Source of the DNA: Candidatus Gygaella obscura
GTDB lineage: Bacteria > Omnitrophota > Gorgyraeia > Gygaellales > Gygaellaceae
DNA: 64,000 bases
Assembly (NCBI GenBank): GCA_030765485.1
Contig: JAVCCR010000003.1
Location: 4,653-68,652 of the forward strand
Direction: 5' to 3'
Made by a program: the position numbers and the translations under genes. The notes under the pieces were generated by a model, which saw nothing but the letters and a program-made list of their open reading frames with translations, searched no databases and was not told the origin of the DNA. Position 1 is the stretch's first letter; each line of letters opens with the position of its first letter. This document shows positions 7,418-36,141 of this stretch, piece by piece.

Positions 7418-7421
7418 GTCC

Positions 7422-11494: not shown

Positions 11495-11500
11495 TCCTAA

Positions 11501-19100: not shown

Positions 19101-19309
19101 CAATAACCACGGTTCTTGGCTTAAGTACCGTTGCCTACGGTATAGGAGGGAAAGATCCGTTTTTAAAACCCATGGCTTTATCGATTTCCTGGGGGCTTTT
19201 ATTCGGTACAGTACTTACTCTTATAATAATGCCCTGTATTTATGCGATAATTGATGATATTACTGTAAAAGTTGTACATCACGCTACGGTACGCAAGAAT
19301 CATAATTAA
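16169..19309 (+). CDS. RND-family efflux permease (AcrB/HAE1-like)
   Basis: 1046 aa with 12 TM helices in a 1+5+1+5 arrangement, two large periplasmic loops and typical AcrB motifs (…MFGLIVVLGMVVDDGII…). Overlaps tolC by 4 nt. Confidence 0.85.
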   Translation: MKIIEFSVKHSLFVNLLSALILIAGVISMFQLRREAFPEVSFDIVTVETIYRGASADEVEKLVTSPLEKELKNVDDIDELSSSSREGYSSIALELNPDLNKNEVMKVVNDIQKAIDRVTDLPDGVDDKPLVTEITSHDMPAIKIALSGKLLEAQLRDLADRLEDKIENIEGVSSIRKTGWRDEEYWVEPDIHKMKEYHVSIEEIMQALSKRNVTIPAGKLRLNGQEFIIKTTGEFTTKEDIENAVIRANDLGNWLRVKDLANVRYTFEEESIIHKTLGTRSITLVVLKREKGDAIKMVAKIKDVIEEFKKDVPKELKISTPYDLSYYIERRLNVLKNNGAIAIVLVVVVLFLFLHPMAALFTSLGIPIAMLATFWYMNSVGLSINMISMFGLIVVLGMVVDDGIIISENVYRYFEKGMSAEEAAIKGANEVMAPVFATVMTTFAAFSPLLFMSGLIGKFVKQIPLVVIIALSASLIEAFIILPSHLAGFVRAKKDQTEGRITKIGKAIFKRVAYIYNKILLKALNHRYKFSIAIFIIFVASMGYAKFFMPFLLFGSKGVEQFHIRAEAKPGISLYKMEELLLPVEELVDKMPKEHLDSYETLVGSITEERGFDPNAKQASNVAQIEVYLTPAQHRKETAKQIMDSMRDDLSKLKNTLPELDKLYFKDFKDGPPTGKAIDLRIRGDEFDILRNIAEEIKDYLYTLKGVKDIDDSYDTGKRELRVIIDEQKAAQAFLTIGEVATSLRNSFEGGIATEITRSKAEEKIKVLVRLAEKQRDKKSVFNELVIVNKYNNLVPLNSIATIEEGWGLTSIEHYEGDRIIAVSASVDNKKMTSKKANDLLRHKFKDISNRYPGYSIKYAGEEQDNIESMRSLIQAFGIAFLLIFLILATIFNSLIQPFVVMLTIPFGLVGVIFALSIHNEPISFLAIMGIIGLCGVVVNDSIIFVDFINKLRKQGIQRRDSIVQAGALRLRPVMLTTITTVLGLSTVAYGIGGKDPFLKPMALSISWGLLFGTVLTLIIMPCIYAIIDDITVKVVHHATVRKNHN

Positions 19310-20753: not shown

Positions 20754-21719
20754 ATGAGCGGACTTGATTTTGAAAAACCAATTCTGGAATTAGAAAAAAA
20801 GATTGATGAACTGAGGAATTTTACAAGCGATAAGAAAATTAATCTTGCTTCTGAAATAAACCGTCTTGAGGAAAAATTAACCAGGCTTAAAAAAGATACC
20901 TACCGCAATATTACTCCCTGGCAGCGCGTACAGATTGCCAGACACCCGCAGCGACTTTACACCACTGATTACATAAATACGATAATGAAGAATTTTATTG
21001 AGTTGCATGGAGATCGTTTATTTGCCGACGATAAGGCTTTAATCGGAGGGTTGGCAACATTAGATGATAGAAAAGTTGTTGTTATGGGTCATCAAAAAGG
21101 ACGTGAAACCAAAGAAAGTATTATGCGTAATTTCGGTTGTGCTCATCCTGAAGGATACCGCAAGGCCTTAAGGTTGATGTATATGGCGCAGAAATTTAAT
21201 CTTCCGATTATTGTTTTTATCGATACCCCCGGAGCATATCCTGGTATTGGTGCTGAAGAAAGAGGTCAGGCGCAGGCAATAGCTTCTAATCTTATGGAGA
21301 TGGTAGAGATAAAAGTACCTATAATCGTTACTGTAATCGGTGAAGGCGGTTCAGGCGGCGCTTTAGGTGTGGGTATAGGAGATAAGATTTTGGTGTTGGA
21401 GAATTCTTATTATTCGGTTATTTCTCCTGAGGGGTGTGCAGCAATTCTTTGGAAAAGCAGCACCAAAGCGCCAGAGGCAGCTGATGCATTAAAGCTTACC
21501 GCAGAAGATTTACTAAAATTTAAGATTATTGATGAGATTGTACCCGAACCTTTAGGTGGAGTGCATAGGGATCCGCAGAAGATGTGTCAGACGCTTAAAG
21601 AAGCTATCATCAGGAATCTAAATTCTTTATCCGACTTATCTACAAAACAAATTCTGGATAGAAGATATAATAAGTTCAGAAAAATCGGCGACATAACTGA
21701 AAACGTACAAGATGCTTAA
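20754..21719 (+). CDS. accA: Acetyl-CoA carboxylase carboxyltransferase alpha subunit
   Basis: 321 aa with the conserved AccA core (…FIDTPGAYPGIGAEERGQAQAIA…GEGGSGGALG…). Confidence 0.85.
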   Translation: MSGLDFEKPILELEKKIDELRNFTSDKKINLASEINRLEEKLTRLKKDTYRNITPWQRVQIARHPQRLYTTDYINTIMKNFIELHGDRLFADDKALIGGLATLDDRKVVVMGHQKGRETKESIMRNFGCAHPEGYRKALRLMYMAQKFNLPIIVFIDTPGAYPGIGAEERGQAQAIASNLMEMVEIKVPIIVTVIGEGGSGGALGVGIGDKILVLENSYYSVISPEGCAAILWKSSTKAPEAADALKLTAEDLLKFKIIDEIVPEPLGGVHRDPQKMCQTLKEAIIRNLNSLSDLSTKQILDRRYNKFRKIGDITENVQDA

Positions 21720-22236
21720 TCAAGAGTTTATCATTTTAGGCCTGTTAAAGTCCGGTCCTCGCCATGGTTATGAAATCAAAAAAGAGCTAAAAGAAGTAGT
21801 TGGTTTATTTGCTACCATAACCAATAAGTCTATATATTATCCTTTAAAACAGATGGAAAAAGCAAAGGTGGTGAAAAAGAATATTTCTCGTGAGGGCTCT
21901 CGTCCTGAGAAATACACGTATACAATTACAGAGCAAGGAGAAAGAAGGTTTAAGGATCTTTTGTATAAGAATATCTCACGGCTTGAGCGGCCATTTTTCG
22001 ACATTGATATGTGTCTCTATTTTCTTCCCTTTTTGTCAAAAACTGAAGTTGTTAAAAGATTAAAGGTAAGGCTGAGGCTGCTTTCCAAGATAGAAAATTG
22101 GCTTAAGAAACAAGCTGGGCAAAAAGAAAAATACTACCCGCATCTTTCAGCAATAATCGAGCATAATCTTGATTTGATCATTTCTGAAACAGGTTTTACC
22201 AAAAAGCTAGTTAATAGATTAAGTAAGAATAAGTAG
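21712..22236 (+). CDS. PadR-family transcriptional regulator
   Basis: N-terminal PadR winged helix (ILGLLKSGPRHGYEIKKEL…YYPLKQMEKAKVV). Overlaps the accA stop. Confidence 0.7.
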   Translation: MLNQEFIILGLLKSGPRHGYEIKKELKEVVGLFATITNKSIYYPLKQMEKAKVVKKNISREGSRPEKYTYTITEQGERRFKDLLYKNISRLERPFFDIDMCLYFLPFLSKTEVVKRLKVRLRLLSKIENWLKKQAGQKEKYYPHLSAIIEHNLDLIISETGFTKKLVNRLSKNK

Positions 22237-22302: not shown

Positions 22303-22330
22303 TTGAAGATTTTTATTTTCCTTATATAAT
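22303..22330 (+). promoter_or_regulatory. Sigma70-type promoter of the 22367-33310 operon
   Basis: TTGAAG at 22303-22308, a 16-nt spacer, and a perfect TATAAT at 22325-22330. Confidence 0.45.
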
Positions 22331-22358
22331 AAAATTTAACTAATAAAATTTAATTAAT
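22331..22358 (+). repeat. Tandem 14-bp direct repeat (AAAATTTAACTAAT / AAAATTTAATTAAT) immediately downstream of the -10 box; candidate operator
   Basis: Two adjacent copies matching at 13 of 14 positions, located between the promoter and the ATG at 22367. Confidence 0.4.
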
Positions 22359-22366
22359 AAGATTCA

Positions 22367-23863
22367 ATGGACATAGCAAAACTTTTACAGGAATCAACAG
22401 ATAAGTATAAAGATAAGCCGGCAATATTTTTTAAGGGCAAAGAAATTACTTTTATTGAGTTAAGGGATAATGTGTTTAAGCTGACAAATGCCCTAGGCTC
22501 TTTAGGCCTAAAAAAACATGATAAGGTTGCTATATATCTTCCTAATTGTCCACAGTATATCTATACCTATTTGGCTATTTGGTGTAGTTGCGCCACGGCA
22601 GTACCGTTAGATTTTATGCTTACCGAAGAGGAGCTTATATCTTGTATAGACCACTCAGAAGCTAAAATTATTATTGCAAAGAAAAAGTCTAGGGTGTCTT
22701 TTTCTGATATAAAAAATAAATGTAAGTTGCTTCAAGAAGTAGTTCTTTTAGACGAGGGTGAAGAATTTGTCAATTTCAATATACTTTTAAATAATGTAAA
22801 AGAAGATTATCCTAAGGCTGAATGCAGTGATAAAGACTACTCTATAATTTTCTATACCTCCGGAACAACCGGGAAACCTAAAGGGGTTTTGATAAATTAT
22901 GCTCAGATAGCAGCACCGGCTATGGGGATGAAACATTTCGTGGGGCTTAATGATAAAGATATTGCGCTTTGTGCGATTCCTTTATCTCATTTGGGCGGGT
23001 TGGTGTTTTTGCAGTCAATAATCTTTTTAGGAACAACTGTTGTGTTGATGGAACGTTTTATGCCGGTTGAATTTTTAAAAAATATTACCGAGTATAAAGT
23101 AACCTGTTTTTGGATAGTGCCATCGATGTATTATGCGATTTTACAGCTTAAGGAATTTGAAAGTTATGATTTATCAAGTCTTCAATGGGTGGTTTCTTTT
23201 GGTGCGCCGAGCTCTGCAGAACAATTGAGGCGTTTTCACAAATATTGCCCGCAGGCTGAGTTTGTCAATGGTTGGGGAATGACTGAAACTAATGCGCCAA
23301 GCGTGGTGATTCCAAAAGGTAGTAAAAAGCTAGAAAGCGTTGGGCTTCCTGCTCCTTGGGTTGAACTTAAGATATTAGATAGCAATAATAAGGAAGTTAA
23401 AAAAACAGAAGTAGGAGAAATTGTTGTCAAAGGATGGGTGGTTACCGATGGCTATTATAAGGATGATGAGCTTACTAAACAGACCAAGCGTAATGGTTGG
23501 TTTTATACAGGAGATCTGGGTAGACTTGATACTGAAGGTTACCTGTATATATGTGGCCGCAAGAAAGAGATGATTAAAGTAGGAGGAGAAATAGTTTTTG
23601 AACCTGAGGTTGAGGCTGCTTTACATAAACATCCTGCTGTTAGCGAAGTGGCTGTAATTGGGGTGAAAGACAAATTAAGGACAGAGGTGCCTAAGGCCTT
23701 TATTGTTTTAAAAGAAGATACGCAGTTTGCAGAAGAAGAAATAGTATTTTTTCTAAAAAAGCATCTGGCCCATTTTAAGATTCCGCATTATTTTGAAGTT
23801 TTGGATACTCTTCCCAAGACCAGATCAGGTAAAGTTGATAAAAAAGTTTTAAGAGACAGATAA
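22367..23863 (+). CDS. AMP-dependent synthetase/ligase (acyl-CoA synthetase family)
   Basis: 498 aa with the AMP-binding motif YTSGTTGKPKGV, a GWGMTET motif, and the conserved C-terminal Lys of this family. Confidence 0.75.
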   Translation: MDIAKLLQESTDKYKDKPAIFFKGKEITFIELRDNVFKLTNALGSLGLKKHDKVAIYLPNCPQYIYTYLAIWCSCATAVPLDFMLTEEELISCIDHSEAKIIIAKKKSRVSFSDIKNKCKLLQEVVLLDEGEEFVNFNILLNNVKEDYPKAECSDKDYSIIFYTSGTTGKPKGVLINYAQIAAPAMGMKHFVGLNDKDIALCAIPLSHLGGLVFLQSIIFLGTTVVLMERFMPVEFLKNITEYKVTCFWIVPSMYYAILQLKEFESYDLSSLQWVVSFGAPSSAEQLRRFHKYCPQAEFVNGWGMTETNAPSVVIPKGSKKLESVGLPAPWVELKILDSNNKEVKKTEVGEIVVKGWVVTDGYYKDDELTKQTKRNGWFYTGDLGRLDTEGYLYICGRKKEMIKVGGEIVFEPEVEAALHKHPAVSEVAVIGVKDKLRTEVPKAFIVLKEDTQFAEEEIVFFLKKHLAHFKIPHYFEVLDTLPKTRSGKVDKKVLRDR

Positions 23864-23877
23864 AAGAGGGTTTAGCT

Positions 23878-24624
23878 ATGATGCAAAGAGAAATTCATAT
23901 TAGTTCTAAAGATTTATTGAGTCAAATCCAGTTTAAATCAAAACCTATGGCTGATATTGCTTTAGTCAGCGGTCAGATTCACCGAGTAGAGTTTTGTCTG
24001 CAGCTATTGACCGAGGTAAAAGAGAATTTTAGTACTATGGGATATACTTTTTGGACCGGAAAATATAAAGGTCGAAGTATTACTGTTGGTAATGCCGGTC
24101 TCTATGCACCAGATACGGCATTAGTGACACAGTTATTGATAGAAGCAGGGATAAATTCTTTTATTCGTATCGGTAGCTGCGGTGCTTTGACAAAGGATAT
24201 ACAGATAGCTGATTTTGTTATTGCTGATAAAGCTTTAAGAGGAGACGGCGTTACTAATTATTATGTTAAGAGTGATTTTATTCCTAAGTCTACGCCTGAG
24301 TTAAACAGCCGGTTAGCTGAAGCAATTATCTCCAAAGGAAAAAAGTTACATCAAGGTATGGTTTGGACAACAGATGCATTATTAAAAGAAACTCCTGAAT
24401 TTGTGAATCCGGCAATTACTAAAGGCGCAATAGCAGTAGATATGGTTACGAGCGCTTTTTTAACACTATGTTCTTTATATAATAAAACTTCAGCTGCGGT
24501 AATGGTGGTAAGCGATAATCTTATTACTGGTGAAGTTGATTTTACTTCGCCTGCGGTTATGGAATCGGAAAAAATAATGTTGGCTTCTAGTTTAGACGTA
24601 GCAGCGCAATTAGGAAATAGTTAA
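23878..24624 (+). CDS. Nucleoside phosphorylase, PNP/UDP family 1 (DeoD/Udp/MTA-phosphorylase-like); candidate MTA/5'-deoxyadenosine phosphorylase
   Basis: 248 aa with the NP-I family pattern (…GNAGLYAPDTA…IRIGSCGAL…). Sits directly upstream of an MtnA-family gene. Confidence 0.65.
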   Translation: MMQREIHISSKDLLSQIQFKSKPMADIALVSGQIHRVEFCLQLLTEVKENFSTMGYTFWTGKYKGRSITVGNAGLYAPDTALVTQLLIEAGINSFIRIGSCGALTKDIQIADFVIADKALRGDGVTNYYVKSDFIPKSTPELNSRLAEAIISKGKKLHQGMVWTTDALLKETPEFVNPAITKGAIAVDMVTSAFLTLCSLYNKTSAAVMVVSDNLITGEVDFTSPAVMESEKIMLASSLDVAAQLGNS

Positions 24625-25533
24625 ATGACTGAATCAATACTTGCATTACCGGTTAGGTTTAAAGGAAATTATATAGAGGTTTTAGATGAGACGCTCCTTC
24701 CTTTTAATGAAAAGTATATACGGGTAGATACATTAGAGTATGCTTTATCGGTTTTAGGTTCTATGAAAACAAGAGCAATGGGTCAGGTGCTTTTATTTTT
24801 TTACTCTTGTGTGCTTTTTGAAAAGAACAATTCAATTGATGAAATTGCAGGTAAATTCAAAGATATACGGCCTACATTTGATTTTATTCTTTTAGCGGAT
24901 CTAGTGAAAAAGGCTCTTGCAAAAGAAAAGAGCATAAAAAGCGCGGTAGAAAGTTTTATAAATGGTTTTCAAGATGCAAGACATAAAAGAGCTAAATCAT
25001 TAGCGTCGATATTGCCTGATGATGCGCGTGTTCTTACAATATGTAATGTTAATTCCGAGCTTATCTATCTGGCTGAGGAAATGCACAAGTTAAATAAGAA
25101 GATATTTTTTTATGTCTGTGAAACACGGCCATATCTTCAGGGAACGCGGCTTACTTTTTGGGAATTAAGAAAACGAGGTATTTCTTGTAAATTGATCTGT
25201 ATATCTCAATCTGCCAGTCTTATGCAGGAAGGTTCAATTAGTACAGTTATTACCGGAGCAGACAGATCCAGCACGAGAGGTGCAGTGATAAACAAAATCG
25301 GTACATATAGCCTGGCAATACTTGCCAAACATTTTAATATTGCTTTTTATCCTTTGGTGCAGTATGCGAAGGATATTGATATAGACGCAATTAAAATCGA
25401 AGAAAGAGCAAAGAGTGAAGTGTTTATGTTTTTAAAAGGGGATTTTGCCCACATGGATGCGCTTTACCCCGCGTTTGACGTTGTAGAAAAAGAATTGATT
25501 ACAAAAAACATAGATTTAACCAAATTAAACTAA
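24625..25533 (+). CDS. eIF-2B alpha/beta/delta-family protein, MtnA-like (methylthioribose-1-P / 5-deoxyribose-1-P isomerase family)
   Basis: 302 aa with eIF2B/MtnA family patterns (LDETLLP…, YVCETRPYLQGTRLT.WEL, VITGADRSS..GAVINKIGTYSLAILAKHFNIAFY). Starts 1 nt after the phosphorylase stop. Confidence 0.65.
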   Translation: MTESILALPVRFKGNYIEVLDETLLPFNEKYIRVDTLEYALSVLGSMKTRAMGQVLLFFYSCVLFEKNNSIDEIAGKFKDIRPTFDFILLADLVKKALAKEKSIKSAVESFINGFQDARHKRAKSLASILPDDARVLTICNVNSELIYLAEEMHKLNKKIFFYVCETRPYLQGTRLTFWELRKRGISCKLICISQSASLMQEGSISTVITGADRSSTRGAVINKIGTYSLAILAKHFNIAFYPLVQYAKDIDIDAIKIEERAKSEVFMFLKGDFAHMDALYPAFDVVEKELITKNIDLTKLN

Positions 25534-25545
25534 TTATAAGGAGAA

Positions 25546-27009
25546 ATGATGAAACTATTATTTTTAAATCCGCCAATCGGTTCATGGGTTTATTGGGGTA
25601 AACATAGAGCTATTAATGTTGCCCATGCTCAACTTACTGCTTGTATCAGAGAGTGGGTTAAAGAAGTAGATATTTCAGTTATTGACTGTCGTGCTTCGGA
25701 ATTGAAAGAAGAACAGATGATAGATAAAATTAAACAGATTTCACCCGATGTTATCTATATGGGCGATGCTTATCAGATGACTGGGACTGTTGCCATATTG
25801 CCGCTTTATCAAAAGGCTGCAAAACTTATTAAGAAGAACTTTCCCAATGTAAAAATCTGCGTAGGAGGTTTTTATATTGCAGCAAATTATGCAGAAATCT
25901 CAAAAGAAAGCCCTGATTTTGATTTTATTATTTCCGGAGAAGTAGACCTGACCTTGACCGAGCTAATACAGGCTTTAAAGAATAACGAGAAAGATTTTTC
26001 TAAAATCAAAGGCCTGCTTTATCGGGATAACGGTTCTTTTAAGACAAACGAGTACCGTGAGCTGATTAAAGATTTGGATACGCTTCCTATGCCGGCGTAT
26101 GATTTGTTTCCGATGGATAAATATATTGGTTATGGTTCAATGCCGTTTTATCAGGAGATTTTTACTGCCAGAGGCTGTCCTTTTGGCTGCGGCATGTGTA
26201 TAGATTGGGTTATAGTTGACCCAAGAGGTAACTGCGACTGGCAGCAGCATAGGTTTAAGTCTGCAGCCAGAGTCGTAGATGAGATGGAGCTACTTTTAAC
26301 TAAATACGGCAAAAAATATATCCATATATTCGATTTGAATTTTAACCCTGTTAGACGGCGCGTGGAAGAGTTCTTAAAAGAAATGCAGAAGAGAAAACTT
26401 CCCATAAAATATGCCTTTTTAGGCAATGCCCATTCCTTTGTTAGAGATAAGGATTTACTGAAAGATTTACGCGATACAGGGTTTGTCTGCGGTATATTCG
26501 GTCTTGAAGTGGAAGATGCTGAGACTCTGAAGAAAATCAAAAAAGGCATTACGGTGCAAAACGTGCATGAGGTTACCCAGTTATTTAGGGAATTAGGGAT
26601 TATGTCTACGATTACCTGGATGATTGGTTTTCCTGATGATGATGAAACTAAGATAAAAAGGCGTTTTGCAGTCTTAGATGAGATTGATCCTGATGTCTCA
26701 TCGCTTCAAATGATGCTTCCTGTTCCGGGTATACCTTTGTACGATGAATTTTCTCCATACGTGGAAGAGCATGATTTGATGAAGTGGGATTTTCATCATC
26801 CTATAGTTAGGACCAAGCATCTTACGCGCCAGCAGTTGGGTCAGTTAGCCGAATGGGCAAACAGAGAGTTTTACACTAAGAAAAACCGTATTCAGCGCAT
26901 CTTGGAAAGCAAGACCTTACATGAATATCCTAAGAATATATTCAAAAGTTATATGTTTAACTTAGAGAAATTCGCTAACGCAGCAACTAAAGAAGAGATT
27001 ATTATTTGA
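25546..27009 (+). CDS. Cobalamin (B12)-binding radical SAM enzyme
   Basis: 487 aa. N-terminal Rossmann-like B12-binding domain (…VIYMGDAYQMTGT…ICVGGFY…), then the radical SAM cluster motif CPFGCGMC (CxxxCxxC), then a C-terminal extension of the DUF4070 type. Confidence 0.8.
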   Translation: MMKLLFLNPPIGSWVYWGKHRAINVAHAQLTACIREWVKEVDISVIDCRASELKEEQMIDKIKQISPDVIYMGDAYQMTGTVAILPLYQKAAKLIKKNFPNVKICVGGFYIAANYAEISKESPDFDFIISGEVDLTLTELIQALKNNEKDFSKIKGLLYRDNGSFKTNEYRELIKDLDTLPMPAYDLFPMDKYIGYGSMPFYQEIFTARGCPFGCGMCIDWVIVDPRGNCDWQQHRFKSAARVVDEMELLLTKYGKKYIHIFDLNFNPVRRRVEEFLKEMQKRKLPIKYAFLGNAHSFVRDKDLLKDLRDTGFVCGIFGLEVEDAETLKKIKKGITVQNVHEVTQLFRELGIMSTITWMIGFPDDDETKIKRRFAVLDEIDPDVSSLQMMLPVPGIPLYDEFSPYVEEHDLMKWDFHHPIVRTKHLTRQQLGQLAEWANREFYTKKNRIQRILESKTLHEYPKNIFKSYMFNLEKFANAATKEEIII

Positions 27010-27028
27010 TTTTAAGAAAGTTACGCAT

Positions 27029-27520
27029 TTGAAAATCGATAATTTAAAAGAATCCATATTGGTTTGGGGCACATTATCCGATGAGGCGCTTATGTATTTA
27101 AAACAGCCCCAGAAAGATAACGCCTTAAACGTTATCGTTGCTGAGAATAGGCCATTTCTTTTAGGGATAAAATATAATGTCCTTAAGCTAAACAAGGAAA
27201 ATATTCCTTTTGTGTATTGTACGGATAACATGCTGGGGTTTTTATTTTATAGAAAGAAAATCTCTCAGGTGGTTATCTGCTATAAGAAAAAAGAAAAAAA
27301 GTCTCTGTTGGCAGATTCAGGAAGTCTTTTTGCTGTATTATTAGCAAAATTGCACAATGTAAAAGTTAGAGCTTTCCCGCAGGGAAATTTGGATTATTCA
27401 ACTTTAGATAAAAACAGCGCCACGCTTGATGGTAAAGCAATGCTTTTAGATGAGGATAAAGACTTTGTACAAGAAACAAAGGATGAATTAATAAAAGAGG
27501 AGTTTTATGAACATAACTGA
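27029..27520 (+). CDS. Degenerate MtnA/eIF2B-family paralog (C-terminal-half fragment lacking the GADR catalytic segment); possible pseudo-enzyme or gene remnant
   Basis: 163 aa with a TTG start. Retains family-like segments (…VAENRPFLLG…IPFVYCTDNMLGFLF…VVICYKK…LFAVLLAKLHNVKV.AF), but the GADR…NKIGTY core is replaced. Confidence 0.4.
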   Translation: MKIDNLKESILVWGTLSDEALMYLKQPQKDNALNVIVAENRPFLLGIKYNVLKLNKENIPFVYCTDNMLGFLFYRKKISQVVICYKKKEKKSLLADSGSLFAVLLAKLHNVKVRAFPQGNLDYSTLDKNSATLDGKAMLLDEDKDFVQETKDELIKEEFYEHN

Positions 27521-28496
27521 GCTTAAGAAACAGATAATCTATTGGGCTAGGCTTTTAAACGAGAGAGGTTTTGTTACAGCAAGAAGCGGTAATATTTCCT
27601 GTAGGTTAGAGGATAAGATTCTTATGACTAGTCACGATTCTTATTTAGGACAGTTAGAAGAGGATGAGATTGTTTTACTGGATTCAAAAGGAGCGATTAT
27701 AGAAGGAGAAAAAGAACCCACCAGCGAAAAGCCGCTTCATCTGGGGATTATGGAACATATTGATGAGGCAAAAGTGATTATACACGCACACAGCCCATTT
27801 ACCACTGCGTATTTTCATTATTTTAAAAAACTGGATATTTTTTCTTTTGAGGCTAAGTTTTATTTAGGAGAGATTAAGGTTATTCCGCAGTCTGGGCCTA
27901 CGGTTACAGATATAAATCCGGTAATTGAAGAGTTGATGAATAATAATATTGTTGTTTTAGGCAATCACGGCGTAGTTGCAATCGGTAAGGATTTTAAAAG
28001 TGCATTTAGTTTGGTCGAGCTTCTAGAAGAACAGTCCAAGATAAATTTGATGTTTTCTGGCAAGACTAAGGATTCTCCTTGCGTTGAAGAAGATAAACAA
28101 CAGATAGAGCATGTAGAAAAATCCTATTTCATGTTTTCACAGGAGCATATTCAAACAATAAAAGATATTATAAATAATGATACGCAGGCACAAGAGTTGG
28201 GTAAAAAGCATGATTTGACTTGTTCGCTTTGTGTTAAGGATATTGATGCCAAACAAGCAGTTTGTTTTTATTACCAGCAAGGCAAAATTACTAATACTGA
28301 TAATAATCCAGAAGCCGAATTTATTATTGCCGGTTCAACAGACATATTAAAGAAGATCTTTAACTGTAAAATTGACCCCTTTGTAGCTGTTACACAAGGT
28401 AAAGTTAAAACCAAAGGTGATATTAATAAAATCAGCCAATGGTATCCGGCACTTACTAGGACATTTAAACTTTGGGAACAGGTAAAAGTGGTTTAG
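27507..28496 (+). CDS. Class II aldolase/adducin-domain protein (Ald2/MtnB-like) fused to a C-terminal SCP2-like lipid-binding domain
   Basis: The N-terminal ~200 aa show the class II aldolase pattern (…VTARSGNIS…, Zn ligands in IIHAHSP…, …GNHGVVAIG). The C-terminal ~110 aa resemble SCP2 (…FIIAGSTDILKKIF.CKIDPFVAVTQGKVKTKGDINKI…). Overlaps the upstream ORF by 14 nt. Confidence 0.7.
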   Translation: MNITELKKQIIYWARLLNERGFVTARSGNISCRLEDKILMTSHDSYLGQLEEDEIVLLDSKGAIIEGEKEPTSEKPLHLGIMEHIDEAKVIIHAHSPFTTAYFHYFKKLDIFSFEAKFYLGEIKVIPQSGPTVTDINPVIEELMNNNIVVLGNHGVVAIGKDFKSAFSLVELLEEQSKINLMFSGKTKDSPCVEEDKQQIEHVEKSYFMFSQEHIQTIKDIINNDTQAQELGKKHDLTCSLCVKDIDAKQAVCFYYQQGKITNTDNNPEAEFIIAGSTDILKKIFNCKIDPFVAVTQGKVKTKGDINKISQWYPALTRTFKLWEQVKVV

Positions 28497-28540
28497 CGGT
28501 ATTTTAAGATTAATTTATTTACTGCAGGAATATATAAATA

Positions 28541-30892
28541 ATGAAAATTCTCGCCATAAGGTTTGCCCGGTTTATTATTAAATTCAGGCTTGTTTTTTTG
28601 GTTGCTTTTACTCTTATTTCAATATTTTTTTTTCAGGTTATAAAAGATATTACGTTTCAGACTGATATCGATGATTTTTATCCGCAGAAGCATCCCTTTG
28701 TTACTGTTCAGAATAAGCTCACCCAGGTTTTTGGTGGGATAAATCAGGTTTCCATTGCCCTAAAAGTAAAAGAAGGCGATATCTTAAATAGTGATACGCT
28801 TGAGAAGGTAATCCGTATTACCAATGAGCTGTATCTTATGGATGGGATAAACCTCGGACGGGTTACTTCTTTATCTGCCCGTAAGATAAAACACATCAAG
28901 GCAACAGAAGACGGGTTTTCCATTGACCGCGTATTAAGACAAGTGCCAAAAGATGAGCTGGAGATGATGGCATTACGAGATAGGATTGTTTTAAGTCCCA
29001 ATGTCTATATCCGTATGGTTTCGCAGGATTTTCAAAGTACGCTTATTCAGGCAGATTTTCAAAAAGGGGTGTCTTCAAAATATATCTTTGATAAGCTGCA
29101 GCAAATAAAACTTCAGGAAGAAAACGCCAATACGCAGATATTTTTAGCCGGTAGACCCATCCTTGAAGGTTGGCTTAATACATATCTGCCTAAGATGTTA
29201 AAGATACTTCTTTTGACTCTTTTGGTGGTTTCACTTATATTGTTTTTTACGTTTCGTTCCAAAAGAGGCGTATTCTTGCCGCTATTAGATTCATCTATGG
29301 CTACATTATGGGGTTTGGGAATGATGAAGCTTTTTGGCTTCAGGCTTGATCCAACAACAATACTGGTTCCATTTTTGATCCTGGCTTTAGGTATCAGCCA
29401 TTCGATTCATTTTATGAAGCATTATTATGAGGAGATGAAGCAAGAAAATAGAAAATCCAAGCATGCTGTACGCAGAACTCTGGAGGTATTATTTGTTCCG
29501 GCAATCACCGCAGTTATTACAGATGGGTTTGGTTTTTTAAGTTTGGCTTTTATTCCTTTAGATACTATTCGCAGTATGGCTCTGGCTGCAGGTTTTGGAA
29601 TTTTTAGCAATTTTCTTACTTCATTTATTTTTACGCCCTGTCTGATTTCTTATATGAAACCTCCCAAGGTGCTTGAGGTAGCCCGCGAAGAAGAACATCT
29701 TTTGATTGATAAACTCTTGTCACGGGTGGCGAATATTTCAACGCATAAGAGAACACGCGTGGTGTTAAGTTTAGTGTTTATATCAATCGTGGCCGTATCT
29801 TTATTTGGAATAAACAAGATTGTCGTTGGAGATAACTCTTTTGGCTCAAGCCATCTTTATCCCAACAGCCCCTATAATAAAAGTGACAAGTTTATAAATG
29901 ATAATTTCGGAGGCACTAATTCCTATTATGTGTTAGTTGACGGCCAAACAGAGGATAGCCTTATTGATTTAGATGCGCTTAAAAAAATCGATTCCCTCCA
30001 GCATTATATACTAAAGAATGTAAAAGAAGCAGGATACGCGGTATCTGTTTCTGATTATGTAAAGGGGTTAAACTTTGCTATGTTTTCCGGTGATAGAAAC
30101 TATTATAGGCTTCCGGAAAAAAGTCAAACCGTTGCTGAATATCTATTTCTTTATGAGATCTCGACTTATCCTGGAGATTTTGAACCAGTGATAACCGCTG
30201 ATTACTCCAAGGCGAATATAAAGTTTGATCTTAAAGACCATAGGCCTTCGACAATAGATAATGTTATTGCTAAGACAAGGCAGTGGATAGATGAGAATAT
30301 GTCTAAAGATGATGTCTTAAAGTTTGAATATGCTGCTGGTGAAATTGGAATGTTGGCGGCAATAAATGATATTATTGCCAAAAGCATAATTCCCAGCATC
30401 ATTTTTATATCAGCTTTAATTTTCGTATATATTTCCTACATATTCGGTTCTGTCAGCGCAGGGTTATTGTTATTGGTGCCGCTACTATTTAGTATTTTAG
30501 TTGTATTCGGGCTTTTTGGTTTAACGGGTATGCCTTTAACAACCGAGACTTTATCTTTAGCAGCATTAAGCGAAGGCCTAGGGATAAATTATGGCATATA
30601 TGTTATCACGCGGCTTTTCCAGGAGGTTAGGCGCAGGAAGCACCCTTCTTATGAAGAGGCATTAAAGGTAACCCTAGTTACATCTGGTAAGGCTGTATTT
30701 TTTAGCGGAATGATTGTTTCAATTGGAATTTTCGTGTGGCTGTTTTCTGATATCCGTCTGCAGGCAAGACTGGGAGTAACTTTAGGAGTTACTTTAATTA
30801 TAAACATGATAGCTGCACTTGTGATTCTACCTTTATTAATATTACTGGTGAAGCCGAAGTTTATTTTTGATATAGAAAAGTTTAAGTATTAA
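28541..30892 (+). CDS. MMPL/RND-superfamily exporter (HpnN-like, sterol-sensing-domain type)
   Basis: 783 aa with two blocks of about six TM helices, each preceded by a soluble periplasmic domain, and an SSD-like block (…FLILALGISHSIHFM…). Confidence 0.75.
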   Translation: MKILAIRFARFIIKFRLVFLVAFTLISIFFFQVIKDITFQTDIDDFYPQKHPFVTVQNKLTQVFGGINQVSIALKVKEGDILNSDTLEKVIRITNELYLMDGINLGRVTSLSARKIKHIKATEDGFSIDRVLRQVPKDELEMMALRDRIVLSPNVYIRMVSQDFQSTLIQADFQKGVSSKYIFDKLQQIKLQEENANTQIFLAGRPILEGWLNTYLPKMLKILLLTLLVVSLILFFTFRSKRGVFLPLLDSSMATLWGLGMMKLFGFRLDPTTILVPFLILALGISHSIHFMKHYYEEMKQENRKSKHAVRRTLEVLFVPAITAVITDGFGFLSLAFIPLDTIRSMALAAGFGIFSNFLTSFIFTPCLISYMKPPKVLEVAREEEHLLIDKLLSRVANISTHKRTRVVLSLVFISIVAVSLFGINKIVVGDNSFGSSHLYPNSPYNKSDKFINDNFGGTNSYYVLVDGQTEDSLIDLDALKKIDSLQHYILKNVKEAGYAVSVSDYVKGLNFAMFSGDRNYYRLPEKSQTVAEYLFLYEISTYPGDFEPVITADYSKANIKFDLKDHRPSTIDNVIAKTRQWIDENMSKDDVLKFEYAAGEIGMLAAINDIIAKSIIPSIIFISALIFVYISYIFGSVSAGLLLLVPLLFSILVVFGLFGLTGMPLTTETLSLAALSEGLGINYGIYVITRLFQEVRRRKHPSYEEALKVTLVTSGKAVFFSGMIVSIGIFVWLFSDIRLQARLGVTLGVTLIINMIAALVILPLLILLVKPKFIFDIEKFKY

Positions 30893-30908
30893 AAAACAGG
30901 AGGGGAGC

Positions 30909-31805
30909 ATGAGGAGTTTGTTGATGAAGAGTTTGTTGTTAGTGTGTTGTGTTTTTGTTTTTGTTGTTAATGGTTTTGCTATGGAGTTTAAGCAGCATGA
31001 GGTTTATAAGATCACTGATGGTATGAACGCAGAAGAAATCATAGGGGTGTCTACTTTTAATAAATATACCAAGTTTGCCTATGATTATGAGTCAACCGGA
31101 TATGTCCACCTGATTGAAAAAAGCGGGGCAAAGAGACAAAGAACTTTTTTACGCCGCAGGATTATTTTGGGGGATAAGTTAGCCAAAATTGATTATAAGG
31201 ATGTTACCAGTTTCACTGCTCCCACATCAGTTAAGGGTTTAGGTATTTTAAGTTGGACCTATATGACCTATGGGCAGGATTCGGATCAGTGGTTATGGAT
31301 CCCATCACTTAAGAAAATTCGTAAGGTTTCAGCTGCTCAAGGTGATGATTCTTTTATGGGTTCAGATTTTACCACAGAAGAAGTCACCACAAGAAAAGTA
31401 GAGGATGAGACCTACAAATTATTAAGGCAAGAAAAGTTCACCGGCTATACATCAAGTTTTAATGGTAAAATCTATTATAAGGATGCAGATTGTTTTGTTA
31501 TAGAGGCAACTCCTGTAAGAGATCCTTGGTATTATTCTAAAAGAATCGTCTGGGTGGAAAAAACTACAGGTGGCGATATCTATGAAGAGATTTATGACGC
31601 TAATGGCAGGAAATATAAATATATCCTTAAAGAATACCAGATTAAAGACGTTAATGGACGCGACTATTCAGTGCAGACGCATCTTGAGGTAGAGGACCTG
31701 CGTTCGAATCACAAGACTGTCATTGAAATAAAGGGTATCAAGTTTGATCAGGGTCTAAAAGAGAGTGACTTTAGTGAAAGAATCCTGCAGAGGTCAAAAT
31801 GGTAA
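30909..31805 (+). CDS. LolA-like outer-membrane lipoprotein-sorting-family protein
   Basis: 298 aa with a signal peptide and a beta-rich body typical of the LolA-like proteins commonly encoded next to MMPL exporters. Confidence 0.55.
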   Translation: MRSLLMKSLLLVCCVFVFVVNGFAMEFKQHEVYKITDGMNAEEIIGVSTFNKYTKFAYDYESTGYVHLIEKSGAKRQRTFLRRRIILGDKLAKIDYKDVTSFTAPTSVKGLGILSWTYMTYGQDSDQWLWIPSLKKIRKVSAAQGDDSFMGSDFTTEEVTTRKVEDETYKLLRQEKFTGYTSSFNGKIYYKDADCFVIEATPVRDPWYYSKRIVWVEKTTGGDIYEEIYDANGRKYKYILKEYQIKDVNGRDYSVQTHLEVEDLRSNHKTVIEIKGIKFDQGLKESDFSERILQRSKW

Positions 31806-31819
31806 TAAAAGGAGTAAGT

Positions 31820-33310
31820 ATGAGGAAGAAAATTGTTTTATTTATAATCTTAGTGTTTGTGGTTTTGGGTGTAACCATGAATAGTTATGCTCAAATGGAT
31901 CAGGCGTTTGTCTATGAAGCATTGCGCAAAGTCTTGCCTTTTGAAAAACTAGAGATGGCCGGGTACTTAAAAAACGAGACATCTCTTAAGATGGCGCATG
32001 GCATGGATGAATTTATGAAGTTTAAGAATATTGTTAACTTGCAGGCTAATTACAATATTAAAGATAATGTTGATTTTTTTACCACGATTAGGTGGTTCCA
32101 TGATGGAGTCTATAGTCTGGAAGAGTCTAGATATACATCGATTGATTCCAAGGAGAAAAATCGGAAACTCAAATTCCCTGAGAAGATGCTTTGGTTAAGG
32201 GATTGCTTTGTGGATATCTATACAGATAGATTGGATATCCGTGCCGGTAAACAGCAGGTTGTCTGGGGTACAGCAGATGGGATCAGAATATTAGATATGA
32301 TCAATCCTTTAGATTACAGCGAGTGGACTTTGCCGAATTACTCTGATATCAGGATTCCTTTATGGATGCTTAATATTGAAGGTGAACTTTTAGCAGACGG
32401 ACATTTGCAGGTTTTATTGATTCCTGATTATCAGGCTAATTATTACGGCCCGGTAGGAGGTCCGTTTACCTTAAGGACGGTGGAATTGGGCGCAAAAAGC
32501 CTTAATGCTTTGCCGCCATTTGTTACTACAACAACAATAAGTGAGCGTCCTAAGCGCAATTTTGAGAATACAAAGCTAGGGCTTCGCTGGCGTAATGTTA
32601 TTGGCGCAGGTTACGCTCAGGGGTTAGAATACACGCTTAATTATTATCACGGTTATGATTTTGCATCTGCAGCCTATACTGCAGTAAAAATTGTTCCCGG
32701 AGGATACTTTAAGTTGACCCGTAGAGCAGAGGGAATTGATGTCTTTGGCGGAACGTTTTCTAAAACTGTTACAAACGGTGCGTTTGGTATTCCTGCACTT
32801 TTTAAGGGTTGGACTGTAAGAGGCGAGTATGCCTGGATTACGCATGGAGCAATGAATTATGGAACTGATGCCAATATCGTAGGTACTGTAGATGTGGATC
32901 AGTTTAATTATGTTTTAGGTTTTGATAAGAATTTTTGGACCAATTGGCTTTTTAGTTTTCAGTTTATCCAGATGAACGCTAAGGAAACTGAGGAGTTCAA
33001 TAAGGATTCCTACGTTTTATTAAATGGCGCTACCCGTGGTTCATTAGGAGATCAGGAAACAACCCTAAGTCTTAAAATTTCAACTGATTTTATGCATGAG
33101 AGAGTCAAGCCGGAAGTTTTAATTCTTCATACGGTCGGCAGTGAGAAATCCGACCGAGATTGGAGGATAAGCCCGAAAGTCAGTTTTGAAATCAATGACC
33201 GCTGGCAAATAGCGGCCGGAGCGCATATCTTTGAGGGAGAGGAACAGCTTTTAAGCGGTCAGTTTGATAAAAACGACCAGGTATTCTTTGAGACAAAGTA
33301 TAGTTTCTAA
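31820..33310 (+). CDS. Putative outer-membrane beta-barrel protein (DUF1302-like)
   Basis: Signal peptide, alternating amphipathic beta pattern rich in aromatics and Gly, and a C-terminal ...YSF. Start placed at the ATG following the AAGGAG SD; the ORF extends to 31799 in frame and overlaps the upstream gene. Confidence 0.45.
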   Translation: MRKKIVLFIILVFVVLGVTMNSYAQMDQAFVYEALRKVLPFEKLEMAGYLKNETSLKMAHGMDEFMKFKNIVNLQANYNIKDNVDFFTTIRWFHDGVYSLEESRYTSIDSKEKNRKLKFPEKMLWLRDCFVDIYTDRLDIRAGKQQVVWGTADGIRILDMINPLDYSEWTLPNYSDIRIPLWMLNIEGELLADGHLQVLLIPDYQANYYGPVGGPFTLRTVELGAKSLNALPPFVTTTTISERPKRNFENTKLGLRWRNVIGAGYAQGLEYTLNYYHGYDFASAAYTAVKIVPGGYFKLTRRAEGIDVFGGTFSKTVTNGAFGIPALFKGWTVRGEYAWITHGAMNYGTDANIVGTVDVDQFNYVLGFDKNFWTNWLFSFQFIQMNAKETEEFNKDSYVLLNGATRGSLGDQETTLSLKISTDFMHERVKPEVLILHTVGSEKSDRDWRISPKVSFEINDRWQIAAGAHIFEGEEQLLSGQFDKNDQVFFETKYSF

Positions 33311-33320
33311 ATAGATAAAC

Positions 33321-33359
33321 AAAAAAAGACCCCGCCTATTAATTTAAGCGGGGTTTTTT
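33321..33359. terminator. Bidirectional rho-independent terminator
   Basis: A7-ACCCCGC-(12 nt loop)-GCGGGGT-T6, sitting between convergent genes that end at 33310 and 33375. Confidence 0.6.
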
Positions 33360-33374
33360 GTTATTCGAGAGTTT

Positions 33375-33764
33375 TTAAATTTTGTTTGAATCTAAGACAG
33401 TGTTAATTTTTTCTGCCAGGCCTTTAAGGTGGTCTCTTTTGCGCAGTTTTACTCTTACGGATTTATCCCCATCAATAAATTTATTTAAATCCTCTTCAAT
33501 ACGAAATAGCGCTCCAAAGGTTCTGTTGGACATAACAATAATAAAATAAACCAGTATTACAAATATAATCATATATCCTGATAGAAACCCCAGGTAAAAA
33601 CTCCTGATGAATTTTACCGGGTCCTTGGTGAAAAAATGAGCGTTGTTAAGCATGCTCCAGAAATACCAGTGGGTTATTCCAGCTGCTAAGATTATCAAGG
33701 CGATAACTATTAAGACATATTTAAGCTGTAGTCCGTTAATGATGTATTTGCTTCTTTTGCTCAT
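33375..33764 (-). CDS. Small 2-TM membrane protein with HAMP-like C-terminal segment (paralog of the 13662-14123 gene)
   Basis: 129 aa with a basic N-terminus, two hydrophobic helices, then …FGALFRIEEDLNKFIDGDK…KLRKRDHLKGLAEKINTVLD, sharing the pattern of ORF 13662..14123. Confidence 0.45.
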   Translation of the reverse strand: MSKRSKYIINGLQLKYVLIVIALIILAAGITHWYFWSMLNNAHFFTKDPVKFIRSFYLGFLSGYMIIFVILVYFIIVMSNRTFGALFRIEEDLNKFIDGDKSVRVKLRKRDHLKGLAEKINTVLDSNKI

Positions 33765-33787: not shown

Positions 33788-33870
33788 TGCCGAAGGTGGG
33801 AGTTGAACCCACACGAGGTTACCCTCATCGGTTTTTGAGACCGACGTGTATGCCATTCCACCACTTCGGC
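33788..33870 (-). tRNA. tRNA-Leu (anticodon CAA), type II with long variable arm
   Basis: The reverse complement reads GCCGAAGTGGTGGAATGGCATACACGTCGGTCTCAAAAACCGATGAGGGTAACCTCGTGTGGGTTCAACTCCCACCTTCGGCA. It has a 7-bp acceptor stem, a CTCAAAA anticodon loop and a GGTTCAACTCC T-arm, and closely matches E. coli tRNA-Leu(CAA). The CCA end is not encoded. Confidence 0.85.

Positions 33871-36065: not shown

Positions 36066-36141
<76 letters not shown>

Follow-up and report, generated by a model that had tools for sequence, protein, structure and literature searches.

A stretch of 64,000 nt of Candidatus Gygaella obscura DNA (the window; assembly GCA_030765485.1, contig JAVCCR010000003.1, positions 4,653-68,652, forward strand) carries nine co-directional open reading frames (ORFs), all on the + strand, at positions 22367-33310. 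Judged from its proteins, this operon appears to be a nucleoside-cleavage module coupled to a radical S-adenosylmethionine (SAM) enzyme, equipped with an SCP2 domain, and placed within a PadR-controlled lipid or polyketide cluster. The module would work like the dihydroxyacetone phosphate (DHAP) shunt or like the fluoroacetate-type pathway, seems to depart from both at the aldehyde pocket of its aldolase, and falls below every equivalog cutoff. The reading that we tentatively place first, at somewhat less than even confidence, is that a lipid- or polyketide-modifying radical SAM enzyme is provided with a built-in DHAP shunt for the 5'-deoxyadenosine that it releases. An earlier note on this DNA did not recognise the gene combination as a described system, and the literature that we searched (on SCP2, class II aldolases and radical SAM enzymes, the DHAP shunt, radical SAM enzymes of Omnitrophota, Velamenicoccus, and radical SAM enzymes acting on lipids) likewise held no description of the cluster.

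The nine genes encode, in order, an acyl-activating ligase (LIG), a purine nucleoside phosphorylase-like enzyme (PNP), an MtnA-type isomerase (ISO), the radical SAM enzyme, a small ISO paralogue (sISO), the aldolase-SCP2 fusion (ALDSCP), an MMPL transporter, a LolA-like carrier, and a DUF1302 outer-membrane barrel. Successive junctions measure 14, 0, 12, 19, -14, 44, 16, and -7 nt (range -14 to +44 nt), with the end of sISO overlapping the start of the aldolase by 14 nt, in agreement with the earlier description of nine same-strand ORFs with short or overlapping junctions. Shine-Dalgarno-like sequences are present at most of these junctions, and GC content is even over the operon and its flanks. 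Domains were called with Pfam at family cutoffs and compared with equivalogs through NCBIfam models; all nine domain assignments made earlier held up in Pfam, the SCP2 fold also in AlphaFold and Foldseek. For the comparative work, 80 loci were probed with the window proteins, 37 of them with full flanks; their genes were called as stop-to-stop ORFs matched by BLASTP, and all of the relatives are metagenome-assembled genomes (MAGs).

The aldolase-SCP2 fusion (27507..28496, 329 aa) is a class II (Zn) ketose-1-phosphate aldolase with Pfam matches to Aldolase_II (1e-34) and SCP2 (27.7 bits, cutoff 21.3). Its AlphaFold2 model (pLDDT 88.8) contains two domains joined by a disordered linker at residues 188-203, and its top match in both sequence and fold is DrdA, the 5-deoxyribulose-1-phosphate aldolase (6BTD and 6BTG, the latter being DrdA with DHAP). 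Residues equivalent to N29, E73, H92, H94, and H155 of FucA are invariant in 87 of 87 members, so that the three His ligands of Zn, the Glu acid/base, and the phosphate site are retained. The aldehyde pocket is altered: Tyr113 is Phe in 80 of the 87 members and Phe131 is Pro in 86, and the linker and SCP2 domain replace the C-terminal tail that closes this pocket in FucA and DrdA. DrdA, unlike the fusion, retains Tyr113, Phe131, and the tail. The C-terminal SCP2 domain, predicted to bind lipid, was modeled with a pLDDT of 93.6 and superimposes on Thermus SCP2 (2CX7) with a Foldseek TM score of 0.82; its top 46 Foldseek matches are all SCP2-like and include UbiJ and the C-terminal domains of alkylsulfatases. 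The fusion is invariant in the family, the SCP2 domain is as conserved as the catalytic domain, and nearly all members have 320-342 aa. NCBIfam scores are 117 bits for FucA (cutoff 250) and 66 bits, over half the domain, for MtnB. The family yields 220 matches in a set of 90%-identity clusters; in a 50%-identity library, 47 representatives reach E<=1e-30. A Rosetta-stone search of the representative library for SCP2 fused to other partners returned P0364, which we set aside because it seems to be chimeric, a truncated radical SAM enzyme run into a truncated aldolase-SCP2 by deletion or in assembly. In a second protein, P0410 (551 aa), Radical_SAM and SPASM domains are fused to a class II aldolase domain that shares 39% identity with that of the window; the fusion looks genuine, comes from another system, and ties the aldolase fold physically and independently to a radical SAM enzyme.

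ISO (24625..25533, 302 aa; IF-2B, 3e-40), an MtnA/DrdI-type isomerase of (5-substituted) ribose 1-phosphates, has the MtnA entries 1T9K and 2YVK as its best structures and keeps the catalytic Cys139 (TICN) and Asp212 (GADR) in 77 of 77 members, and it remains below all NCBIfam MtnA cutoffs (160 vs 271). Its small paralogue sISO (27029..27520, 163 aa, TTG start) scores 36 bits against IF-2B (cutoff 22.4) and had been taken earlier for a degenerate MtnA fragment. That description has to be given up, as does the idea of a pseudogene: sISO occurs in 70 of the 80 loci at a stable length of about 160 aa and retains the ENRP and TDN motifs, without the catalytic Cys and the GADR motif. It would most plausibly serve as a partner subunit with no catalytic role of its own. 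The phosphorylase (23878..24624, 248 aa; PNP_UDP_1, 5e-35) is of the hexameric type and finds its best structure in the Sulfolobus 5'-methylthioadenosine (MTA) phosphorylase 1JDS. Throughout the 57 members of its family G20, R24, R87, S90, M180, and D204 are invariant, which preserves the phosphate site and the catalytic Asp204. The ribose-binding Glu181 is Val or Ile in 57 of 57, His4 is mostly Met, and Arg43 is Glu or Gly; the near-universal E-M-E ribose-binding motif thereby reads D-M-V. An acidic residue or Gly at the Arg43 position implies altered binding of sugar and phosphate, and the sugar/5' pocket is predicted to be hydrophobic. Against the DeoD model the enzyme scores 106 bits (cutoff 232). 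The E. coli DeoD and FucA reference sequences were validated only by residue numbering, in which all literature-numbered residues mapped correctly. Finally, LIG (22367..23863, 498 aa; AMP-binding and AMP-binding_C, 1e-84) is an ANL-superfamily acyl/aryl-CoA or -acyl carrier protein (ACP) ligase with the long-chain-fatty-acid-CoA ligase as nearest NCBIfam model (446 bits, below the 476 cutoff) and FadD5, 4-coumarate-CoA ligase, oxalate-CoA ligase, and FadD-1 as closest structures; by these comparisons it is not of the acetyl-CoA synthetase type. Because members all lie below the NCBIfam cutoffs for MtnA, MtnB, FucA, and DeoD, the window enzymes represent distinct subfamilies and not orthologues of the named enzymes.

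The radical SAM enzyme (25546..27009, 487 aa) is assigned to class B, the class with an N-terminal B12-binding domain, which is putative here, and its gene sits between ISO and sISO in the window. The Pfam Radical_SAM match is 8e-13 (49.4 bits, cutoff 29.5), the CxxxCxxC motif at C211, C215, and C218 is invariant in 65 members, and relatives carry a precomputed PF02310 match. BchE and HpnJ are the nearest NCBIfam families (205 bits against a cutoff of 481, aligned over residues 42-450, and 140 bits against 578), CysS and TokK are the only relatives in the Protein Data Bank (~1e-12), and the ladderane-associated TIGR04072 is not matched (70.4 bits, cutoff 360). In a neighbor-joining tree the cluster-linked enzymes form one monophyletic clade with one copy per cluster, and a model with two paralogues per cluster was rejected on that ground; homologues at ~40% identity sit in unrelated gene contexts. 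This result bears on the earlier proposal that phosphorylase, isomerase, and aldolase are tied to the radical SAM enzyme. Since a single clade accompanies the module across several phyla despite gene shuffling, the proposal stands. The tree of the radical SAM enzymes and the identities of the aldolase-SCP2 proteins disagree (L006-L014 versus L003/L035/L085/L086): loci with the aldolase closest to that of the window (59-60% identity) have a radical SAM enzyme only ~43% identical to the one in the window, and Desulfofervidus-type and Fibrobacterales loci have one that is 52-59% identical. The mismatch points to a mosaic evolution of the cluster or to parts of it having been exchanged.

The aldolase-SCP2 fusion was found in 126 species-level genomes, mostly of Omnitrophota. 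The other bins are labelled Desulfofervidus, Desulfobacteraceae/Syntrophobacter, Deferribacterales, Victivallales, and Fibrobacterales, and one contig is labelled Methanoperedenaceae. All 37 of the full-flank loci contain ISO, 32 have sISO, 35 the radical SAM enzyme, and 35 an aldehyde dehydrogenase (ALDH); PNP (24), LIG (25), PadR (21), and the MMPL/LolA-like/DUF1302 set (9) are less frequent. The ALDH of the relatives is non-acylating and lies directly after the aldolase. The core of the family consists of ISO, sISO, the aldolase-SCP2 fusion, ALDH, and a single dedicated clade of radical SAM enzymes. Three architectures recur. In the first (A), an optional PadR gene is followed by LIG, the radical SAM enzyme, PNP, ISO, sISO, ALDSCP, ALDH, MMPL, LolA-like, and DUF1302. 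In the second (B), ketosynthase (KS), chain-length factor (CLF), ACP, cyclase, SRPBCC protein, major facilitator superfamily (MFS) transporter, and short-chain dehydrogenase/reductase (SDR) precede the radical SAM enzyme, Amidohydro_2, Aminotran_4, ISO, sISO, ALDSCP, and ALDH, optionally followed by an LsrF-like protein with a Zn-dependent alcohol dehydrogenase (Zn-ADH) and by the MMPL set. In the third (C), PadR, LIG, PNP, ISO, sISO, ALDSCP, ALDH, and the radical SAM enzyme are followed by ApbA, a TIGR04076-family protein, KS, CLF, ACP, cyclase, SRPBCC, and MFS genes. One locus, L093, holds all components in a single 18-gene array and has an aldolase 61% identical to that of the window, whose operon looks like a reduced form of this ~18-gene supercluster. 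Conservation of the exact nine-gene order, proposed earlier as a neighbourhood check, extends only to the closest relative, L001, which also has the same flanking genes; elsewhere the genes are shuffled and the exporter is found in 19 of 80 loci. ALDH has been lost in the window, L001, L012, and L039, and no KS, ACP, or ALDH gene occurs elsewhere in the 64-kb window. The loss of ALDH, the PadR gene, and the link to a type II polyketide synthase (PKS)-like block had no place in the earlier account.

Some variation among these loci deserves separate mention. Type B clusters carry a fold-type IV aminotransferase of the BCAT/ADCL-like kind, and their Amidohydro_2 protein (ACMSD/LigW-like) was considered as a substitute for the phosphorylase and rejected, as it coexists with PNP in L093 and L042 and belongs to the PKS/radical SAM side. 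The exclusivity of PNP plus LIG and Amidohydro_2 plus aminotransferase is not a pure artefact of 10-kb flanks: the type B locus L091 is truly without PNP, LIG, and PadR. On the 2.5-Mb contig LR991655.1 (L085), labelled Candidatus Methanoperedenaceae, the cluster is of bacterial type and includes LolA-like and DUF1302 genes, with the MMPL and IF-2B genes split into pieces; the contig may have been mis-binned, or the copy may have been acquired horizontally and be in decay. In the Fibrobacterales locus L086 (1325-8213), the genes ahead of the module include one for an Aminotran_1_2 enzyme, which might be an alpha-oxoamine synthase, and others for a GRAS-domain protein and an FrsA-like hydrolase, and two adenylating enzymes and a carrier protein also lie directly upstream; this suggests that the product of that locus may be of a carrier-bound, amino-lipid type.

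The type II PKS-like block (KS/CLF, ACP, cyclases, ketoreductase, and MFS), which forms the other half of the ~18-gene supercluster, adjoins the module in 44 of the 80 loci. The first KS has a Cys/His/His triad and the second lacks all three residues, which makes the two a KS/CLF pair as in type II PKSs (for example at 1307-3810 in L087 and 8752-11236 in L091). Alongside the pair come an ACP, two cyclases (one PF04199, one SRPBCC), an SDR, an MFS transporter, a reductase of the ApbA type, and the TIGR04076-family protein, and the set is, as far as its genes tell, a type II PKS-like pathway in strict anaerobes. In the CLF the Cys is replaced by Arg (motif SDRASS) and not by Gln; yet the CLF is 72-91% identical across Omnitrophota. 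Because of this Arg, priming by decarboxylation to acetate is unlikely and a loaded starter would be needed. The PKS-like and nucleoside blocks can be 680 kb apart in one chromosome, and for this reason the former may lie elsewhere in the genome of the window. The relatives resemble type II PKS-like and aryl-polyene-type clusters in having KS/CLF with a dead CLF, ACP, ketoreductase, two cyclases, a ligase, and in some cases MMPL and LolA-like proteins, and the window differs in having no KS or ACP within 64 kb. We know of no aryl-polyene or type II PKS cluster with a nucleoside-cleavage module or a B12-type radical SAM enzyme. From the same phyla, PMC9902471 reports antiSMASH 'ladderane' calls with no function assigned, and the clusters described here may correspond to those made in Omnitrophota.

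The last three genes of the operon would serve transport. The MMPL protein (28541..30892, 783 aa; MMPL, 7e-36) is a MMPL/HAE3-type resistance-nodulation-division (RND) inner-membrane transporter that scores 124 bits against Pfam MMPL (cutoff 20.5), matches the sterol-sensing domain as well, and reaches 203 bits against HAE3 TIGR00921. It had been called HpnN-like. The exporter family stands and the likeness to HpnN holds only loosely, since both HpnN models are missed widely (TIGR03480 82.6 bits, cutoff 752; NF052374 46 bits, cutoff 1100). Next come a LolA-like/TP_0789-like, DUF1329-related periplasmic carrier with a signal peptide (30909..31805, 298 aa; LolA_like, 4e-43; DUF1329, 3e-11) and a DUF1302 outer-membrane beta-barrel protein, also with a signal peptide (31799..33310, 503 aa; DUF1302, 5e-24). 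The order MMPL, LolA-like, DUF1302 is conserved in 16-19 loci, DUF1302 always being third, and the set is optional (19 of 80 loci, 9 of the 37 with full flanks). The same three families are co-encoded in the DUF1302/DUF1329/RND (COG1033) module of Proteobacteria, whose genes are co-fit in mutant screens, are needed for Pseudomonas growth on fatty esters, with the transport direction undecided there, and are implicated in the handling of hydrophobic compounds or an envelope component. That module differs in having a BNR/Ycf48-like fourth component, which was not seen here, and the present set differs in being joined to a biosynthetic-looking operon. We infer that a hydrophobic product would be moved outward by the MMPL, LolA-like, and DUF1302 proteins. 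Such an exported, hydrophobic product appears to be supported by the SCP2 fold, by the MMPL/LolA-like/DUF1302 or MFS transporters, and by the KS/CLF/ACP genes of the relatives.

Regulation provides a further sign that the genes belong together. A PadR-family regulator (21712..22236, +, 174 aa; Pfam PadR, 1e-15), whose gene start overlaps the accA end by 8 nt, is encoded directly upstream of LIG in 34 of 80 loci and in 21 of the 37 with full flanks; the genes before PadR vary. The sigma-70-type promoter TTGAAG-16-TATAAT (22303..22330, +) and the tandem-repeat operator noted earlier were both recovered. Promoter-like sites are not enriched in the AT-rich DNA of the window (63 found vs 55 expected); in L001 the -35 and -10 boxes and the repeat are conserved and the rest of the PadR-LIG spacer has diverged. 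The operator (22327..22358) consists of two copies of the 13-nt unit TAATAAAATTTAA, 14 nt apart, and overlaps the -10 box. It is a diverged copy of the family operator, the 20-bp palindrome ACTAGTAAAATTTTACTAGT, which is found ahead of LIG in ~50 loci and has its window copy at 22339. Allowing up to 4 mismatches, the palindrome has 56 matches in the 1.57 Mb of the loci vs ~1-2 per 600 kb of shuffled sequence; 51 of the 56 are directly upstream of LIG, and the sites are often paired 14 nt apart, equal to the spacing in the window. Distant loci have a TTGACA box in the PadR-LIG spacer and then the palindrome at promoter distance, and L015 and L085 have a copy upstream of MMPL. Because the palindrome is conserved in this spacer across loci, PadR and the operator belong to the system. 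PadR is likely the repressor, and the operon would be PadR-regulated through putative binding of PadR to the operator. No B12 or SAM riboswitch was found in the leader, and an Rfam search of the window gave only two tRNAs. At the other end, the bidirectional intrinsic terminator described earlier was located at 33329..33354, with a 10-pair stem including 6 G-C pairs, an A-run upstream, and a T-run downstream, and is the strongest terminator of the region.

How these parts might act together can be set out as follows. The nine genes would form one PadR-repressed unit whose proteins build or alter a hydrophobic molecule, of an acyl or polyketide kind, and bring it to the outer membrane. A carboxylic acid would be activated by LIG, and the B12-type radical SAM enzyme, which we infer is probably in a complex with neighbouring proteins, would then modify a hydrophobic substrate held by the SCP2 domain. 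The 5'-deoxyadenosine from each turnover would be dismantled on site: the PNP-like phosphorylase would yield adenine and 5-deoxyribose 1-phosphate, ISO with its partner sISO would convert the latter to 5-deoxyribulose 1-phosphate, and the Zn aldolase would cleave this to DHAP and acetaldehyde. In most relatives the ALDH would turn the two-carbon fragment into acetate, and in some relatives a Zn-ADH and an LsrF-type thiolase would turn it into acetyl-CoA. The product would finally cross the envelope by way of MMPL, the LolA-like carrier, and the DUF1302 barrel.

Almost all radical SAM enzymes release 5'-deoxyadenosine, which lends prior weight to a shunt for this by-product. The chemistry itself is established: a phosphorylase and an isomerase, together with an aldolase of class II, break 5'-deoxyadenosine or MTA down to adenine, DHAP, and an aldehyde, and the 5-deoxyribose/DHAP shunt has been validated, including a variant initiated by a phosphorylase (PMC6079011). 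The operon has the same three enzyme families in series (MtnP or DrdK, MtnA/DrdI, Ald2/DrdA), with the catalytic residues of isomerase and aldolase intact, DrdA as the best structural match of the aldolase domain, and an MTA phosphorylase as that of the phosphorylase. Type B clusters have no dedicated phosphorylase, and because of this a generic nucleoside substrate, cleavable by housekeeping enzymes, is the easiest explanation. Further points in favor of the shunt are that the ALDH is dispensable, that some cluster types do without a dedicated phosphorylase, and that some loci encode a thiolase of the LsrF type. This protein exceeds the NCBIfam cutoff for the 3-hydroxy-2,4-pentadione 5-phosphate (P-HPD) thiolase (354 > 297) and is always paired with a Zn-dependent secondary-alcohol dehydrogenase beside the module (L002 12836-14712; L018 11058-12896; also L019, L028, L029, L036, L047, L051, L059, and L061). 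The LsrF substrate P-HPD is 5-deoxyribulose 1-phosphate oxidised at C4. Because oxidation at C4 would give P-HPD, the pair could constitute an ATP-free, thiolytic variant of the DHAP shunt that yields DHAP and acetyl-CoA. To our knowledge, a thiolytic DHAP shunt has not been described.

Several observations weigh against a shunt for the by-product. A plain shunt has no need of an SCP2 domain at the aldehyde-pocket end of the aldolase, and the stand-alone DHAP-shunt enzymes differ from those of the window here as well as in the tail that is lost and in Y113F and F131P, which a plain shunt would leave unexplained. The same would apply to the changes of Glu181 to Val and His4 to Met in the phosphorylase and to the conserved non-catalytic isomerase paralogue, none of which has a match in the DHAP shunt. 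The ligase resembles fatty-acyl/aryl-CoA ligases, not acetate-activating enzymes, and the non-acylating ALDH that follows the aldolase in 35 of 37 full loci seems to go beyond a plain shunt; unlike the stand-alone trio, the family is embedded with a dedicated radical SAM enzyme, ALDH, ligase, PKS-like block, and exporters. Every cell has many radical SAM enzymes, so a private shunt for one clade is puzzling. The B12-binding match of the radical SAM enzyme (30.6 bits) is just under the Pfam cutoff of 32.1, and B12 binding is putative. The homologues all come from MAGs. Of the earlier suggestion that the operon makes and exports a lipid-like molecule modified by the radical SAM enzyme, with disposal of 5'-deoxyadenosine built in, we therefore keep the hydrophobic exported product and the coupling; that the module merely removes 5'-deoxyadenosine we keep as a tentative reading.

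These same features suit a pathway that produces a building block, a possible reading that we regard, at roughly one level with the by-product shunt, as nearly equally likely. Here a 5'-X-adenosine with a hydrophobic X would be trimmed to an acyl unit, combining the logic of HpnH/HpnG with that of fluoroacetate formation. The radical SAM enzyme would either attach the 5'-deoxyadenosyl radical at an sp2 carbon in some lipid or polyketide or else alkylate C5'; the PNP-like enzyme would remove adenine; ISO/sISO would produce the ketose 1-phosphate; and the aldolase would release DHAP and X-CH2-CHO, with X lying in the SCP2 tunnel. ALDH would oxidise the aldehyde to X-acetate, LIG (or the Zn-ADH with the LsrF-like thiolase) would provide the thioester, and the thioester would prime KS/CLF-ACP or enter an envelope lipid exported by MMPL, LolA-like, and DUF1302 proteins. 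An exact enzymatic precedent exists in Streptomyces cattleya, where PNP, an MtnA-like isomerase, an aldolase, and an NAD-dependent ALDH act in the same series in the fluoroacetate/4-fluorothreonine pathway and convert 5'-fluoro-5'-deoxyadenosine to fluoroacetate and then fluoroacetyl-CoA and omega-fluoro fatty acids (PMC8945431). The complete series occurs in relatives (ALDH in 35 of 37 full-flank loci), and the window is without ALDH. The pathway differs in that the sole SAM enzyme here is a class B radical SAM enzyme, in the anaerobic Omnitrophota that are the hosts, and in having no counterpart of SCP2, sISO, or the exporter; neither the window's cluster proteins nor those of any locus examined contain a SAM fluorinase/chlorinase domain.

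A precedent on lipids comes from hopanoid side-chain formation, in which HpnH adenosylates diploptene and the PNP-family HpnG then trims the adenosyl-lipid (PMC13459092). The pathways have in common the use of an adenosyl group on a lipid by a radical SAM enzyme, removal of adenine by a PNP-family enzyme, and export of lipid by an RND/MMPL protein, and one of the families nearest to the radical SAM enzyme of the window is HpnJ, the B12-type radical SAM enzyme of the hopanoid pathway. The likeness is in logic only: the Hpn equivalog cutoffs are missed (HpnG 37.6/187, HpnJ 140/578, HpnN 82.6/752), there is no HpnH-type radical SAM enzyme and no squalene-hopene cyclase nearby, and the Hpn pathway retains the ribose that would, by analogy, be isomerised and cleaved further here. 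Within the family, production of a building block gains from the invariance of the SCP2 fusion, its position on the aldehyde side of the active site, and its conservation at the level of the catalytic domain; from an aldehyde pocket remodelled relative to FucA and DrdA, with the tail replaced by SCP2; from the hydrophobic phosphorylase pocket; from the ALDH next to the aldolase and the FadD/4CL-like ligase; from the Arg of the CLF, which argues for a loaded non-acetate starter; and from the two ligases and carrier protein directly upstream in the Fibrobacterales locus. Against it, the known adenosylating radical SAM enzymes HpnH and MqnE are in other classes than class B, type B clusters have neither dedicated phosphorylase nor ligase, and ALDH, which would be essential, is missing from the window and three relatives. 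The LsrF-like protein fits an equivalog model whose substrate has X = H, and the minimal operon of the window offers no obvious source of an acceptor. We know of no class B radical SAM enzyme that transfers an adenosyl group. The specific version in which the enzyme keeps the adenosyl group, or an alkylated form of it, on its hydrophobic substrate, and the ribose is then cut to a two-carbon aldehyde stub and DHAP so that SAM becomes a two-carbon (carboxymethyl) donor, we consider slightly less probable than the building-block reading as a whole.

Less can be said for import. If the DUF1302, LolA-like, and MMPL proteins took up an amphiphile or 5'-deoxynucleoside from outside, such as one released by a host or prey cell, the cytoplasmic enzymes would degrade it to adenine, DHAP, and an acid fed into metabolism by LIG. 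The requirement for the homologous transport genes in Pseudomonas on fatty esters speaks for this, as do the Omnitrophota themselves, portrayed in PMC10066038 as largely host-dependent nanobacteria. The transporter set is confined to 19 of 80 loci, with the radical SAM enzyme and module persisting without it, the KS/CLF/ACP/cyclase association is biosynthetic, the radical SAM enzyme would have no obvious role in such catabolism, and neither a kinase nor a nucleoside transporter is present in the cluster, all of which makes import improbable. An O2-independent methionine salvage pathway is more improbable still. In such a scheme ISO would act as MtnA, the aldolase fold as an MtnB-like dehydratase, the radical SAM enzyme would replace the dioxygenase step, and the type B fold-type IV aminotransferase would be the final transaminase of 2-keto-4-methylthiobutyrate (KMTB). 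The matches of ISO, PNP, and the aldolase-fold protein to MtnA, MTAP, and MtnB models, the replacement of the catalytic Tyr113 of FucA by Phe, the BCAT/ADCL-like aminotransferase, and a spermidine-synthase-like protein elsewhere in the window, a possible source of MTA, are in keeping with it. The MtnB score (66 bits over half the domain) is below that of FucA (117 bits), the conserved non-acylating ALDH implies an aldehyde product, no enolase-phosphatase is present in the cluster, and the scheme accounts for neither SCP2 nor the KS/CLF block, the exporter, or the ligase. A chance juxtaposition of salvage genes, an unrelated radical SAM enzyme, and an unrelated exporter, for which one could cite the separable, optional exporter and the 680 kb that can lie between the two blocks, is effectively refuted by the co-occurrence of the radical SAM enzyme with the ISO/sISO/ALDSCP core in several phyla despite shuffling, the clade dedicated to the cluster, the common operator, and the overlapping reading frames.

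Whatever the exact chemistry, the cluster family is present in no fewer than 126 species-level genomes from a phylum that is uncultured and has small genomes, and these organisms spend 10-20 kb on it. Because of this outlay and the 72-91% identity of the CLF, the product is probably important for envelope or lifestyle. If the by-product shunt is correct, a radical SAM enzyme has a private, possibly complexed, disposal line for its by-product. If instead a building block is made, SAM has a new use as a two-carbon donor, which would merge hopanoid-type radical adenosylation with fluoroacetate-type trimming, phylum-wide in Omnitrophota. The analysis also newly defines a family of SCP2-fused aldolases, a non-catalytic MtnA paralogue, a distinct phosphorylase subfamily, and a PadR operator, and it proposes the cluster as a possible pathway supplying cargo to the enigmatic DUF1302/DUF1329/RND module.

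The operon is surrounded in the window by diderm housekeeping genes, including those for LptE, Lnt, an LpxL-like protein, MurJ, SecA, and LeuRS. A second, classical RND system (MarR regulator, outer-membrane efflux protein, and AcrB-type pump) occupies 14242-19309 (+), and the DUF212, YkuD, accA, and PadR genes come just after it. Further upstream, at 6491-13660 (+), a MoxR-type AAA ATPase and a DUF58 protein precede proteins of 943 aa, without a Pfam match, and 719 aa, with weak Big_2 and hyaluronate-lyase-N matches whose best stretches alone are above the E-value limit. A 129-aa ORF that matches no family (33375-33764, -) lies just beyond the terminator, on the other strand, and is conserved in L001. 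The spermidine/spermine-synthase domain mentioned above occupies residues 277-399 of a 734-aa protein (56065-58269, -) ~23 kb from the operon, and a PilZ-domain protein follows it. Two tRNA genes, at 33788-33870 (-) and 36066-36138 (+), flank an SPFH/NfeD pair.

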